Positions 51,677 through 55,527 of a stretch of DNA of 57,015 bases are shown here, piece after piece. The stretch lies in the IMG/VR virus record IMGVR_UViG_3300046170_000256. One strand, written 5' to 3'. Both the position numbers and the translations under genes were made by a program. Positions within the stretch are counted from its first letter, which is position 1; every line of letters starts with the position of its first letter. Under the pieces are notes generated by a model. It was not told where the DNA came from. It worked only from the letters and a program-made list of their open reading frames with translations, and did not search any database. Origin of the DNA: a virus.

Positions 51677-53089
51677 TCAAGCCGCTTGCGCGACGATGGT
51701 TTCAGTGCCTGACGTGTCGATGTCTCGCTGAATGTCAGAGCGTGGCATGCGATCCAGCACTACAACCAGATTCTCTCGCATCCCAAGATTCTCCCAGTCA
51801 AAGCTCATCATCTCGCCGTCAGTGAAGACAACAGTGAGGTCACACTCCAGACCATTCTCGTCAAGATACTCAACACCGGATGTCATGTAAGTCCCGCCGC
51901 CGTAAGGCACCTCGATGTCCGTTAGCTCAGAGCCGCTGTGCACCTCGTCAGTCTGGACTACATGTGAGCCGGTCCAGCACACCACCACCCCATCTCTGGG
52001 TTGGAGTGAGTCGATCAGCGATGCGCTCTCGGTCAAGAAGTTGTTGAGAGCCTGCTCGTTTACTGACGGTGACACATCAATCACCATGCCGATCCGACCA
52101 ATCTTGCCGATAGTTGTTGGACTGATCACGCCCAGCGTGGCAAACCGGCGGCGGTGAATGCGCGACCATGTGACATTGCCACCCTCGCCTGCACGATTGA
52201 ACCGATCAGCAAGCTGTGCGCGCCAGTCGGTACTGCTAGACGCAGACTCTCGGTACCGGTGCGATCCCTCTCGGATTGAGTCGCTCAGTCCAGCGACGGT
52301 GCCACCCTCCCGACCGAGTTGCTCGATACCGTCATCAACAGATGACCGGATCTCATGCTCGTCCTCAGCGGCGGCTTGAGCTTGCTCGTCCTCATCGCCT
52401 TCATACTCGGGAGTTAGATGATAGTCGTGGCCCTCTGCGTCGGGAAGCTCTGGCTCTGACTTGTCAGGAGCAGTTGATTCCCCTGAATCGTCACCATCTT
52501 GCTCTGACGCTGGCTGTGGATCTGAGTTGTCAGAGCCAGTCGAATCTCCCCAGTCATCGCCATGCAGGTCGCCATCATCATCCGGTTGATCAGAAGGGTC
52601 ACCATTCTCAGGCTTGTTTGAGTAGAGCGACAGGTAAATCGCGTCCACCAGATCGTTGCGGCCATACTCTACGGAGTAGCATCCGTTAGGCACTGGCTCC
52701 AGACCCATAGCATCACAGTCTGAATTGATCATATAGTCAGCCGCTTTGTTGTAGAGGCGGTGATCAAATGAAACGTCAGCCGTGAACCAGCCGCGATCAG
52801 AGAATGCCTTACTGCGCTGGGGGTGGCGCAGGATGATGTGCGATACCTCATGTGCGAGCAGGAATGCGCGCTGTGAGTCAGTCGCTAGACCACGAAAAAA
52901 CTCGGGACTAACGTAGACGTGCACCCCGTCAGTCGCGGCGGTTGGGATGGCGCTAGTCCAGATAACCTCGGTGCTTAAAAGCAAGGTGTAGTGAACGGGT
53001 GCCTTGGCTTGCAGGATGATCAGCGCCGCGATGTAGCGGCGTGATCTTGACAAGTCATCAGTAGCATCGAATAGCTTCTTGGCTCTCAT
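51677..53089 (-). CDS. Zincin-like (HExxH) domain + acidic linker + VWA domain protein (DUF2201/CobT-like)
   Basis: HEVSH (52838-52852), a roughly 95-aa D/E-rich insert, and the MIDAS-like DVSPS motif in MVIDVSPSV. Confidence 0.65.
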   Translation of the reverse strand: MRAKKLFDATDDLSRSRRYIAALIILQAKAPVHYTLLLSTEVIWTSAIPTAATDGVHVYVSPEFFRGLATDSQRAFLLAHEVSHIILRHPQRSKAFSDRGWFTADVSFDHRLYNKAADYMINSDCDAMGLEPVPNGCYSVEYGRNDLVDAIYLSLYSNKPENGDPSDQPDDDGDLHGDDWGDSTGSDNSDPQPASEQDGDDSGESTAPDKSEPELPDAEGHDYHLTPEYEGDEDEQAQAAAEDEHEIRSSVDDGIEQLGREGGTVAGLSDSIREGSHRYRESASSSTDWRAQLADRFNRAGEGGNVTWSRIHRRRFATLGVISPTTIGKIGRIGMVIDVSPSVNEQALNNFLTESASLIDSLQPRDGVVVCWTGSHVVQTDEVHSGSELTDIEVPYGGGTYMTSGVEYLDENGLECDLTVVFTDGEMMSFDWENLGMRENLVVVLDRMPRSDIQRDIDTSGTETIVAQAA

Positions 53090-54228
53090 TATTTTGCACT
53101 CCAGTTGGCTGAATCAGCGAGCGGGATTAGCTCGTGAAATTTTTGAATGAATGCGGTGGCAACGTCGGACGTTAGCACCCATCCGTTTTTAGCTGACATG
53201 CGGAGCAGTTTGGTGCCCAGCGATACCTGCAAGTCGGGACGCAGGCGGACTATATATTGCAGAGCGGCCTCGCCTAGTTCCGCAGAGTAAGCGCCGTGGA
53301 TGGCACGATTAGCGGCCAGCAGTTGGTAACCGGTGGCGTCGGGCACCTTGGCCTCTAGCGGGGAGGCATAAATATCCTCGGATACGGGAACCTCATCCGC
53401 CATCGCAATGTGGCGGGACATCATACCGGCGGCTCGCACCCCGACACTGGAGGCAATCAGCGCCTCCATATATGATGGTATATAAACGCCATCAAACTCA
53501 TCGGTCTGCATGAAGGCAGTGAGATCAGCGGCGGCATGCACCAGTGATCGAGGCGTACAGAATGGACCGTCCTCAGTTGGCACAGCGTCAGCAAAGAAGC
53601 CCTCGCCGTGATAGGTCACCGCACAGTCAATTGCCAGCGGGTTCACATCGTTGACGTTTGCCCAGTCAGCCCACTGATTGATGTTGAATTCCAGCTCGAA
53701 CGACCGGACCCGATTGAGCAGGTGCGAGAGCAGTCGGCTTGCTCCAGACTTGTCAGCGGCACGATTACCCGTAGCCGCAACAATCCAGCCGTCAGGAATC
53801 TTGACACCGGCAAGCGTTCGCTCGTCAGGGTCCAGCACGTCGGCCAGCACCTTCTGAACATCGGCAGGTGCTTGTAATAACTCATCGAATAAGATGATGC
53901 CATGCTCCAGACCAGTCTCTTGGATCTTGGTGATCAGCGGCGGGGTAGTGAATTTGGTCAGCACCTCGCCCTTGTCATTCTTGATAGGCAATGCCACCCC
54001 AGCGATCTCAGCAGAGTCACGGTTAGCCACTCGCTCTTGAATCAATCCAACCCGATCAACCGAAAGGCCAAGGTGCTCGGCGTACATCGAGTGATAGGTG
54101 TTTTTGATCCACTGAGTTTTAGCGATGCCCACCATACCGATCAGCACCAATGGTTTTTTCATTGGGTTGCTGAACATAGTGCGAGCCATTTGCTCCAGAA
54201 GAGCGATGTTAGTTTTGATATGTGCCAT
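53089..54228 (-). CDS. MoxR/CobS-like AAA+ ATPase
   Basis: Walker A-like GMVGIAKT (Ala replaces the second Gly), Walker B GIILFDELL, sensor-1 IVAATGN. Coupled to the VWA gene. Confidence 0.65.
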   Translation of the reverse strand: MAHIKTNIALLEQMARTMFSNPMKKPLVLIGMVGIAKTQWIKNTYHSMYAEHLGLSVDRVGLIQERVANRDSAEIAGVALPIKNDKGEVLTKFTTPPLITKIQETGLEHGIILFDELLQAPADVQKVLADVLDPDERTLAGVKIPDGWIVAATGNRAADKSGASRLLSHLLNRVRSFELEFNINQWADWANVNDVNPLAIDCAVTYHGEGFFADAVPTEDGPFCTPRSLVHAAADLTAFMQTDEFDGVYIPSYMEALIASSVGVRAAGMMSRHIAMADEVPVSEDIYASPLEAKVPDATGYQLLAANRAIHGAYSAELGEAALQYIVRLRPDLQVSLGTKLLRMSAKNGWVLTSDVATAFIQKFHELIPLADSANWSAK

Positions 54229-54250
54229 GTGAATTTCTCCCTAGAAATTA

Positions 54251-55228
54251 TTAGTCGATCAGGTCAGCGAGTAATGAGTCGCCAGTGATCACGGTAGATG
54301 CGGCAGGTGCCACGGTTTTAGCAGTTGAAGGTGCCTTGGCAACATCGCCAAGCGTTTTATGTGCGGTCTTGGCGGCGCGGATCGCGGTCGCCCGGAGCGT
54401 GTCGCTATTCTTAACTCGTTCGATGTTACCGATAGAGCCAATCTGCTCATCAATCAGGTCAGCGATCTGCAACACTCTGGGATCGTTGTCATATCCCTGC
54501 ACCATGCCGCGCAGTAACGATGCGTGGCGTTTGGAATTGTCGATCAACGATTGATGCAGGCGCTTGCCCTCAGTCAGTTGCTTTTCTACGTTGCCCATGT
54601 GATCCCGCGCCCCGTCGATAGCGGCGTCCTTAGCGCCTTCCAGTTGGGTCGATAGTGCGGCCTCGTGACGTGCGGCAATGTCAGCGGCTAGTCCGGCGGG
54701 CAGGTTTAGTCCTGACATGTCACAAACAGGGATCGGCTGTGGCGGGGTCAGCGATGCGGCAAACATCCCGCGCACCTCGTCGCACGTTGGGTAGGATACC
54801 TCGCGCTTCCATTCGCCCATATCGAAACGCAGGGCCAGATCCCTCAGCCGATCATACTCGGGCAGGAATGCGTCCAGCGCGTCATACGCCTCCGACTTCA
54901 ATTCACCCAGCTTGCTGAGCACCTCGGGGACATTGGCGACCGCAACCAGCCGGTCACCTCGACGTTGCTGACCCTCGCCTGCGTCGGAAAATGGCAGGGT
55001 GTTCTCGTAGAGGTAGGTACGGATGGCGGCAAACTTGGCTGACACCTGTTTGAGATCAGCATGGTGCGATCCCAACAGATTGACGTAGCCACGAAAAGCC
55101 TCGGGGTTTGCATTGGCTTGCTCTGCGGCCTTGGCTGATCCCTGTTTAAGTTGCTGAACACCAGACCAGCGGCGCACCGTGACCTGTACCAGCATGAAAT
55201 TGTTTGAAGCGGTCTCAATAAAACTCAT
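54251..55228 (-). CDS. Hypothetical helical protein (DUF3150-like by size and context, unverified)
   Basis: 325-aa ORF, first large gene of the cassette. Confidence 0.4.
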   Translation of the reverse strand: MSFIETASNNFMLVQVTVRRWSGVQQLKQGSAKAAEQANANPEAFRGYVNLLGSHHADLKQVSAKFAAIRTYLYENTLPFSDAGEGQQRRGDRLVAVANVPEVLSKLGELKSEAYDALDAFLPEYDRLRDLALRFDMGEWKREVSYPTCDEVRGMFAASLTPPQPIPVCDMSGLNLPAGLAADIAARHEAALSTQLEGAKDAAIDGARDHMGNVEKQLTEGKRLHQSLIDNSKRHASLLRGMVQGYDNDPRVLQIADLIDEQIGSIGNIERVKNSDTLRATAIRAAKTAHKTLGDVAKAPSTAKTVAPAASTVITGDSLLADLID

Positions 55229-55527
55229 TAGATAGTCTCCCCATTAAGTAAAACTTCACCCTTTCGAGTGCATACATCCACGCCTAGAGCGCGGAGCCGT
55301 GACATTGTTGTGCGTGTTGGATAGTCGGCCAGCGTTCTGGTGTTGACCTCGACCGTCCATTTATCTCGACCGTGACAAGCGCCCCAGACTGTGGCGATGT
55401 GATTGCCATGCAAGTAGACGCCTACCTTCGCATCCGCGCCGTAGATTTTTTTGGTGCTGGTGTTTGCTCCTGACCAGTCACGCCCAAGCATGACGGCGGA
55501 ATTCATATTCATCTCAATCTTTCGCAT
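55228..55527 (-). CDS. Hypothetical small protein, first gene of the leftward early operon
   Basis: ATG 55527 with AGGGAG 8 nt upstream (the listed ORF starts at GTG 55536). Confidence 0.5.
   Translation of the reverse strand: MRKIEMNMNSAVMLGRDWSGANTSTKKIYGADAKVGVYLHGNHIATVWGACHGRDKWTVEVNTRTLADYPTRTTMSRLRALGVDVCTRKGEVLLNGETI

Follow-up and report, generated by a model that had tools for sequence, protein, structure and literature searches.

A DUF3150, AAA+ ATPase and zincin-VWA gene triad in a phage genome, its relatives on conjugative elements and a possible role in the establishment of incoming DNA

AAA_5-class ATPases and VWA adaptors in described systems

[quoted passage not shown] A comparable set of components is encoded in the phage DNA analysed here, a stretch of 57,015 nucleotides (nt) from IMG/VR record IMGVR_UViG_3300046170_000256 which at its full length is called the window throughout: a DUF3150-superfamily protein of 325 amino acids (aa), an AAA+ ATPase of 379 aa and an adaptor of 470 aa that joins a zincin-like domain to a VWA domain. 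This triad recurs in other phages and on conjugative plasmids and integrative and conjugative elements (ICEs), and we tentatively propose, with a confidence that falls a little short of even, that it helps incoming DNA to become established, as an ATP-driven machine whose early target is a protein in the cell just entered.

In cobaltochelatase the N-terminal domain of CobT resembles peptidase M48C and binds the small subdomain of CobS; it is followed by a disordered linker, by a "shaft" that, in the nucleotide-bound state, reaches into the CobS ring, and by a VWA domain with a MIDAS, whilst CobN, the "largest subunit" of the holoenzyme, is held between both CobT domains and near the MIDAS, an arrangement whose authors compare CobSTN to NorQ-NorD-NorB (bioRxiv 10.64898/2026.07.21.739949). 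In phages, a MoxR AAA+ ATPase and a metallopeptidase-vWA protein have been described as a pair (Iyer et al. 2021, PMC7824862). These are the same two families as in the window, again adjacent and with HExxH and MIDAS intact, and they correspond to phrog_1297 and phrog_1314 of N4-like, rV5-like and jumbo phages, where no DUF3150 protein is detectable beside the pair.

The only experimental lead comes from a plasmid counterpart. Transposon-insertion sequencing (TnSeq) in the IncC plasmid pVCR94 defined the hde operon. Without vcrx089 (AAA_5+CbbQ_C) and vcrx090, deleted together, the plasmid moved into Vibrio cholerae 25-fold less; this defect is gone in an hsdR mutant, which makes it one of type I restriction evasion, and complementation works from the recipient and not from the donor (PMC7498323). 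The same study found that ssb, bet and exo of IncC repaired Cas3 breaks, that deletion of ssb-exo and deletion of vcrx089-090 gave separable phenotypes and, with a primer in vcrx094, that the hde transcript extends through vcrx094 (PMC7498323). The IncC backbone runs in the order ATPase, hypothetical, ssb, bet, exo, DUF3150, VWA, and synteny in another IncC plasmid suggests that vcrx094 would be the DUF3150 gene and vcrx095 the VWA gene.

On the IncP-7 plasmid pCAR1, ORF100-103 include an ATPase with AAA_5 and CbbQ_C, a DUF3150 protein (8e-92) and a VWA protein of ~600 aa, near ssb-recT and lambda-exo. The ORF100-103 unit is conserved in R478, Rts1, SXT and R391, and the ORF100-109 operon showed stronger transcription in a transconjugant host (PMC2642839); according to the literature the Pfam-recognisable module is also present in SXT/R391, IncH and IncT elements. 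A DUF3150 protein of the plasmid type is encoded by 1124 plasmid records; conjugation is predicted for 970 of these, and plasmids of Escherichia, Klebsiella and Salmonella are included.

An earlier note on this locus, made from the DNA sequence, had also pointed to NTP-dependent conflict systems. The pairing of MoxR and vWA is indeed shared with the ternary vWA-MoxR-VMAP systems (Kaur et al. 2020), but these have VMAP and an effector-fused vWA where the window has DUF3150 as its third component; no Pfam match to VMAP or bpMoxR was obtained for the window proteins, and neither an effector fusion nor a match to PADLOC was found, so that the comparison holds for the pairing and not for the rest.

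The triad in the window

The three genes follow a small open reading frame (ORF) on the minus strand (Table 1). The four ORFs, both 1-nt overlaps and the 22-nt gap reported by the earlier note agree with the ORF list and with the junction letters: the junctions at 55228 and 53089 read TAATG, and the gap at 54229-54250 contains a GGGAG ribosome-binding site. The motifs quoted there (GMVGIAKT, ILFDELL, IVAATGN, HEVSH and DVSPS) are all present in the translations, and its view that an ATPase of the MoxR/CobS type works with a VWA adaptor holds in general. The cassette has a GC content of 55.3% against 51.2% for the window, and a megablast search of 50,697 phage records returned no relatives at the DNA level. 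Sequence searches of solved structures with single proteins of the cassette gave nothing useful.

The 379-aa ATPase matches phrog_1297 at 7e-41, and as a single sequence it matches Pfam AAA_5 weakly, with 18.1 bits against a cut-off of 22. A profile built from 10 homologues gives 1e-29 with the AAA domains of midasin, 1e-4 with NorQ/CbbQ and 6e-9 or weaker with Clp/Hsp100, and because of the midasin matches the protein is assigned to the AAA_5 (MoxR/CobS/midasin/dynein) class. The Walker A lysine, the Walker B Asp/Glu, the sensor-1 asparagine, the arginine finger and the sensor-2 arginine are all found, with K37, D115, N155, R173 and R227 invariant in the 10 homologues. The alanine variant of Walker A is confined to the window phage, aligned relatives having the canonical GxGKT; alanine in place of the glycine before the lysine is tolerated in MCM-type P-loops.

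The 470-aa adaptor carries DUF2201_N (3e-28, 99.5 bits against a cut-off of 23.2) followed by the VWA-like DUF2201 (1.5e-8, 35.2 bits against a cut-off of 26.4), and the guess of a DUF2201/CobT-like protein was therefore correct, both domains being above cut-off and the build being that of CobT. Pfam gives a weak match to Peptidase_M48 (8.6e-4), whilst the family profile searched against the PDB finds the M48 peptidase 3c37 at 5.7e-6 and also BepA, minigluzincin and HtpX. In an alignment of 24 sequences, some of them only ~21-25% identical and drawn from plasmid, N4-like, cyanophage and Rhizobium-phage proteins, H80, E81, H84, H89, N114, D118 and N122 are invariant, as are all five MIDAS residues (D338, S340, S342, T400 and D424). 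With HExxH, the catalytic glutamate and the third ligand conserved, the adaptor would, on its sequence, fit an M48-like zincin metallopeptidase. The acidic insert is real, with 36 D+E against 4 K+R and an isoelectric point (pI) of 4.05 over aa 156-260; residues 161-221 have a predicted local distance difference test score (pLDDT) below 50 and are predicted to be disordered, and the length of the linker varies among relatives. The AlphaFold2 (AF2) model is moderate overall (pLDDT 69.5) with both folded domains confident and the acidic insert disordered, and Foldseek matches the C-terminal domain as a VWA domain with probability 1.0 to ANTXR2, integrin I domains and NorD 9qhe_G. With an M48-like zincin first, then the disordered, acidic linker, a helical segment ahead of the VWA domain and this domain last, the adaptor has a CobT-type build, a resemblance in architecture and not family membership.

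Annotation of this family is uneven. PHROG labels phrog_1314, the zincin-VWA (DUF2201) family, "HNH endonuclease", a name that has spread through many N4-like records; DUF2201 proteins so labelled are seen in phage records H50-H88 (e.g. L002:5901-7025), and one rV5-like record says "anti-sigma factor". Both names look like annotation errors.

The likeness to CobT invites two readings in which the module would handle metal. One is that of a metal-cofactor insertase, like NorQD, CoxDE, CobST or BchID, with HExxH...H as a metal-holding site and not a protease centre: the adaptor architecture is identical to that of CobT, MoxR-VWA systems are typically metal-insertion chaperones and the window encodes a 2-oxoglutarate (2OG)-Fe(II) oxygenase. 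The catalytic glutamate of the HExxH motif is, however, invariant, a typical feature in hydrolytic zincins; the phages and plasmids with the module have no conserved candidate for a metalloprotein target in common, and the oxygenase is unlinked to the module elsewhere, leaving this reading improbable.

The other, a genuine viral cobaltochelatase CobST which hijacks host CobN to raise cobalamin synthesis, has been proposed for widespread viral cobST clusters, in which cobT was said to be "mistakenly annotated as a peptidase" (PMC8651126). The CobT architecture of the adaptor agrees with this, and the IncC VWA protein barely passes Pfam CobT (26.6 against 26.1 bits). The window proteins themselves match no Pfam or NCBIfam model of CobS, CobS_N, CobT or CobT_C at E<=0.1, which includes the NCBIfam CobS equivalog for the ATPase and the CobT equivalog for the adaptor. 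Compared with CobSTN, the window has an intact and invariant zincin motif, a 35-kDa DUF3150 protein and not the far larger CobN as third partner, and the context of a mobile element. No CobN-sized ORF with a relevant Pfam match and no B12-dependent enzyme or class II ribonucleotide reductase (RNR) was seen among the scanned ORFs of the window. Furthermore the module is found in abundance on plasmids from Escherichia, Klebsiella and Salmonella, genera without the aerobic CobN pathway, and the sole phenotype of a related ATPase is anti-restriction. For these reasons (no CobS, CobT or CobT_C match, an invariant zincin glutamate, DUF3150 as third gene, no CobN or B12 enzyme in the window, and plasmid versions in hosts without the aerobic CobN route) a remodeller and protease seems a better description than a chelatase, and the cobaltochelatase-like role, very unlikely indeed, is the least supported of the candidates that the earlier note had put forward.

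The 325-aa protein scores below threshold against Pfam DUF3150 (PF11348; E 0.006, 16.5 bits against a cut-off of 24.9), whereas 11 of 36 homologues match the model at E<=0.01, the best at 2.4e-6. Five of the 95 first-search matches had been annotated PF11348 beforehand and UniRef names several of the profile matches DUF3150; hhalign relates the family to the pCAR1 and IncC DUF3150 proteins at E about 1e-4 with probabilities of 55-62%. An exhaustive search with the family profile gave 3034 cluster representatives at E<=1e-3, and Pfam recognises one of ten sampled. The protein is a member of a large, divergent branch of the DUF3150 superfamily, and the earlier guess of DUF3150 is borne out at superfamily level by homologues, profile-profile match and fold. 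Its AF2 model (pLDDT 83, predicted TM-score 0.76) has an alpha/beta N-terminal part, long helices, a disordered stretch and a conserved C-terminal tail. Foldseek of the model against the PDB gave nothing below E 0.4, and as there is no PDB counterpart no function is drawn from the fold; against BFVD there are seven viral matches with probability 1.0, five of them at template-modelling (TM) scores of 0.61-0.78, and one of these five is named DUF3150 (TM 0.68-0.75). Alignment shows P101, P177, R223, D249 and R251 to be invariant together with a GYDNDPR loop. The tail GDSLLADLID is a candidate docking peptide. Residues 306-325 of the model have pLDDT<50; of three plasmid homologues two end in a hydrophobic tail of this kind, which MinM2 and Simplicispira do not have.

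The small first protein belongs to the Kyano_Gp96 (Pfam, 9e-15) and phrog_554 (2.5e-17) family and is basic (pI 9.6). Its homologues occur in 163 phage records, mostly of T4-like cyanophages, without the triad, and one lies in the early region of Ralstonia phage RSB3, where the triad does not accompany it. Conversely no small-protein homologue stands upstream of the triad in related contigs, even where the DUF3150 protein is 81% identical, and the small genes that do precede the triad differ between relatives. Because its homologues do not accompany the triad in relatives, the small gene counts as an early gene of its own and the conserved unit is the triad. That the small protein might be a fourth subunit was considered and ruled out, as no homologue of it lies upstream of the triad in relatives and pCAR1 ORF100 is not one either; the "four-gene cassette" thus reduces to three conserved genes and a small ORF that is coupled to them here only.

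Table 1. Positions in the window of the triad, its sequence motifs and other features
Feature	Position	Strand	Details
Small ORF	55527/55536..55228	-	99 aa from ATG 55527, 102 aa from GTG 55536
DUF3150-superfamily gene	55228..54251	-	325 aa
C-terminal tail GDSLLADLID of DUF3150 protein	54254..54283	-	alignment; follows disordered linker, aa about 300-320
AAA+ ATPase gene	54228..53089	-	379 aa
Walker A GMVGIAKT, aa 31-38	54115..54138	-	translation; Ala in place of Gly before Lys
Walker B ILFDELL, aa 112-118 (D115, E116)	53875..53895	-	D115 invariant
Sensor-1 IVAATGN, aa 149-155 (N155, then R156)	53764..53784	-	N155 invariant
Adaptor gene (zincin/VWA)	53089..51677	-	470 aa
Zinc-site motif HEVSHIILRH (H80, E81, H84, H89; HEVSH = aa 80-84)	52823..52852	-	alignment
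Acidic low-complexity linker, aa about 158-232	52394..52618	-	composition, pLDDT
MIDAS DxSxS: DVSPS, aa 338-342 (D338, S340, S342)	52064..52078	-	completed by T400, D424
GC hairpin, candidate weak terminator/attenuator	51672..51656	-	6 GC pairs, tail TTATTCTT
Best sigma70-like promoter candidate, leftward operon	56063..56035	-	TGCACA-17-TATAAT, 10/12 match
Primase-helicase	46944-48692	+	
RusA	46170-46580	+	
PD-(D/E)XK nuclease	44890-45762	-	
Sak single-strand annealing protein (SSAP)	43933-44694	-	
2OG-Fe(II) oxygenase	41608-42336	-	

Distribution and possible role

The cassette is not peculiar to one phage, the pair being common in N4-like and other phages and the triad present on conjugative elements. 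By tblastn the ATPase is found in 284 phage records and the adaptor in 226. Carriers of the pair are mostly N4-like, with rV5-like, jumbo and Rhizobium phages and cyanophages besides, and the two genes are usually adjacent and beside replication genes: the pair adjoins a Dda-like helicase and DNA polymerase in N4-like Vibrio phages, lies near DNA pol I in Rhizobium phages, and in cyanophage S-TIM54 adjoins Hsp20 and virion structural genes. The full triad is found in cyanophage MinM2, where it is near a primase, in Planktothrix relatives, on conjugative plasmids and ICEs from the genera Burkholderia, Paraburkholderia, Cupriavidus, Ralstonia and Simplicispira, and also in a Dongiaceae metagenome-assembled genome (MAG); in the Burkholderiales elements it has PRTRC/ubiquitin-like cassettes on one side and type IV secretion genes on the other.

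The triads of the MinM2/Planktothrix phages and of the Burkholderiales elements consist of the same three families, each with direct pairwise homology to the window; against the proteins of MinM2 and of a B. ambifaria plasmid the ATPase gives E values of 4e-8 to 4e-14 and the adaptor 5e-13. They differ in their order, ATPase-DUF3150-adaptor, and in adaptors without the long acidic insert, and no experimental study of triads of this type was found in the literature searched. A survey of anti-defence genes in plasmid leading regions does not mention the DUF2201-type system. The order of the window, DUF3150-ATPase-adaptor, is kept in seven related metagenomic phage contigs of 9-75 kb, and in these the triad forms the first sizeable genes of an operon divergent from the packaging (terminase/portal) genes.

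A genome scan with a reduced DUF3150 alignment gave a single match among 185,579 species genomes, contig JBDQJL010000032.1. This 8.9-kb contig, binned in a Luminiphilus sp. MAG (isolate prefix SFB), carries the triad and an ORF of primase-helicase size; it is probably a phage fragment, and gives a weak hint of a marine gammaproteobacterial host for the lineage.

These neighbourhoods bear most directly on what we consider the main rival, a replication- or recombination-linked role in which the module would be an accessory that remodels or clears proteins (such as nucleoid proteins or stalled complexes) on incoming or replicating DNA, or that assists the single-strand-annealing module, with no defence system as its target. 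The module is nearly always beside helicase, polymerase, primase or ssb-annealase-exonuclease genes, being interleaved with ssb-bet-exo in IncC and close to ssb-recT and lambda-exo in pCAR1; in plasmids its neighbours include nucleoid proteins of the HU and YejK types, and on the same side the window also encodes a Sak SSAP, a PD-(D/E)XK nuclease, RusA and a primase-helicase. Yet any establishment function would also adjoin early and replication genes, Pfam and NCBIfam scans detected no DNA-binding domain in the three triad proteins, and the sole phenotype of a related ATPase is restriction evasion, separable by deletion from that of ssb-exo. We regard this role as unlikely, if foremost among the alternatives.

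Position and distribution weigh further on a role as a virion-assembly chaperone with peptidolytic processing of structural proteins. An assembly role was proposed for this pair in group 2.2 jumbo phages (PMC7824862), a MoxR-vWA pair is needed for tail development in Acidianus two-tailed virus, and the S-TIM54 pair has structural genes and Hsp20 beside it. Conjugative plasmids and ICEs, however, carry the triad and build no virions, in the window and its seven relatives the triad heads a non-structural operon apart from the structural genes, and no dependence was detected in the capsid/portal region of the window. The chance that this is the function appears slim.

An entry role is proposed because the triad heads an operon that faces the packaging genes and because it is shared with plasmids and ICEs, where it lies among recipient-acting genes. 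The modules of IncC (Hde) and pCAR1 (ORF100-103) resemble that of the window in that a mobile element combines an ATPase of the AAA_5 class with a VWA protein and a member of the DUF3150 family, and in a VWA protein whose N-terminus has TDG...HExxH and an acidic linker as in the window adaptor; they share a transcript with genes whose products act when a new cell is entered, and are tied to a single-strand-annealing recombination module. They differ in that the window ATPase is without CbbQ_C, so that the AAA core alone aligns (hhalign 86-96%), that the window adaptor is of the shorter DUF2201 type and not the ~600-aa CobT type, that its DUF3150 protein is of a divergent branch under the Pfam threshold, and that the gene order is another one and the carrier a lytic-type phage and not a conjugative element. 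The motifs TDG...HECSH (pCAR1) and TDG...LAHEAAH (IncC) of the ~600-aa proteins align to the window zincin motif, and pCAR1 ORF103 has an E/D/Q-rich linker. Records of these proteins (L020:8342-10138 and L016:15527-17341; IncC, IncP-7) are annotated "VWA domain-containing" or "NorD", and, judged by their motifs, the proteins may retain a metal or protease site unmarked by annotation. From the shared DUF3150 protein and the shared adaptor build it therefore follows that phage and plasmid modules form one system.

A DUF3150 relative was also sought in Vcrx090. The DUF3150-family profile, which includes the 325-aa protein, showed no similarity to the protein at the Vcrx090 position of IncC; Vcrx090 was rejected as a DUF3150 relative, and within this comparison the window has no counterpart of it.

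The establishment role is favoured because the IncC hde phenotype, the transcription of the pCAR1 operon in a transconjugant and the position at the head of the operon agree. By analogy with IncC Hde, the target would most likely be a host defence or DNA-associated complex of the newly entered cell, and the suggestion of the earlier note that the cassette, whose role it could not infer from the sequence, dismantles a host complex or defence system now has indirect experimental support in IncC Vcrx089 and Vcrx090 (PMC7498323). Its terms "early" and "promoter-proximal" are right in so far as no ORF comes before these between them and a divergent region of 0.9 kb, whilst the timing is read from that position.

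As to how the triad might work, an assembly of motor, adaptor and third protein on the plan of CobS-CobT-CobN and NorQ-NorD-NorB is the most economical suggestion, because the adaptor has the CobT build and an AAA_5 ATPase as partner. In such a machine the 379-aa ATPase would be the ring motor; the M48-like N-terminal domain of the adaptor would dock on it, with the acidic disordered linker and the helical segment leading to the ring, and the VWA/MIDAS domain would hold a partner by an acidic residue. Standing where CobN does in the chelatase, the 325-aa DUF3150 protein may present a client or be the client. This client would probably be cut as well as remodelled, because the adaptor, unlike the chelatase, retains HExxH...H with the catalytic glutamate.

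A number of observations weigh against the establishment role. The likeness of the window module to those of IncC and pCAR1 is weak beyond the AAA core, at hhalign probabilities of 55-62% for DUF3150 and of 13-56% for the zincin motif; no CbbQ_C match was found in the window ATPase by Pfam scan, and its Walker A is deviant. In IncC, TnSeq depleted vcrx089-093 only and vcrx094/095 were not reported as needed (PMC7498323), and the demonstrated partner of the IncC ATPase is Vcrx090, the phenotype belonging to Vcrx089 and Vcrx090 and not to the DUF3150 and VWA proteins. PADLOC gave no match for the cassette and NCBIfam nothing meaningful. The N4-like phages have the pair amid replication genes and without DUF3150, which suits a replication-linked role equally, and no functional study of a DUF2201-type system was found in the literature searched.

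Surrounding genome and wider significance

Directly after the adaptor stop codon lies a GC hairpin with a poor U-tract, whose 61-nt context folds no better than shuffles, and 34 nt separate it from the start of the next small gene; of the terminator claimed earlier the hairpin is present, whilst the U-tract and a folding energy indistinguishable from chance make it a weak candidate. Further downstream an exact 19-nt motif, TTAACAAGTCCCRAGGAGG, occurs twice (51631-51649 and 51300-51318, minus strand; chance expectation 0.01), each copy just upstream of the start of one of the small ORFs that follow the cassette directly, and including the ribosome-binding site; it could be a repeated translation-initiation or regulatory element. 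On the other side a gene-poor divergent stretch of 0.9 kb (55540-56460) separates the leftward operon from the small terminase gene. It matches no Rfam family and carries a 21-nt direct repeat (55821-55841 and 55989-56009, 90%) and, just ahead of the start of the terminase small subunit, the tandem 12-mer ACTATCGGTAAC twice at 56427-56450. The best promoter site in it is ~500 nt upstream of the cassette and stands as a candidate only, since the count of sigma70-like sites in the region is not above chance.

Elsewhere in the window the replication and recombination set spans 40895-49161, with no DNA polymerase among the ORFs scanned and no tRNA found by ARAGORN. Directly downstream of the major capsid gene at 10699-11607 (Mu-like gpT / Phage_capsid_4) is an Rfam Mu-gpT-DE RNA motif (11636-11694, plus strand; 51.1 bits against a gathering threshold of 49). 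A 555-aa ORF (666-2333, plus strand) is flanked by the terminase genes, the small one at 56462-56968 and the large one at 2345-3847, and has no Pfam match and no tblastn match in 50,697 phage records, and the structural region includes an ORF of 2561 aa (31767-39452, plus strand).

Parts of this picture are already known: the pair from comparative genomics, the plasmid version, which has been noticed and partly tested, and triads that are annotated in public records. What had not been treated together in the literature searched is DUF3150 as a recurrent third component across phages and conjugative elements, and the CobT build with HExxH that is shared by DUF2201 adaptors and the plasmid "CobT/NorD-like" VWA proteins. 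The window cassette is a typical member and well preserved, from a lineage of marine or estuarine phages that is uncharted in other respects; it is one more example and no new principle.

The family matters for its numbers, with the pair in hundreds of sequenced phages, most N4-like ones included, and the DUF3150-bearing form in more than 1000 plasmid records, including the IncC backbones by which multidrug resistance spreads. Three incompatible proposals have been published for it: that it serves cobalamin synthesis, that it assists the assembly of virions and, in the case of the plasmid ATPase, that it evades restriction. A single machine of three parts, with an adaptor of the CobT type and what its conserved residues suggest is a retained protease site, would be a concrete and testable model. 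Viral "cobST" annotations call for caution and are not to be counted as metabolic genes outright. A broader proposal, unlikely as it stands, is that the triad is a general "entry machine" of phages and conjugative elements which seizes and proteolytically inactivates a host defence or DNA-bound complex, for example type I restriction-modification. If that were true it would constitute an enzymatic, energy-driven class of anti-defence, and many of the auxiliary metabolic genes called "cobS/cobT" in viruses would have been assigned wrongly and would belong to this machine and not to the cobalamin pathway.

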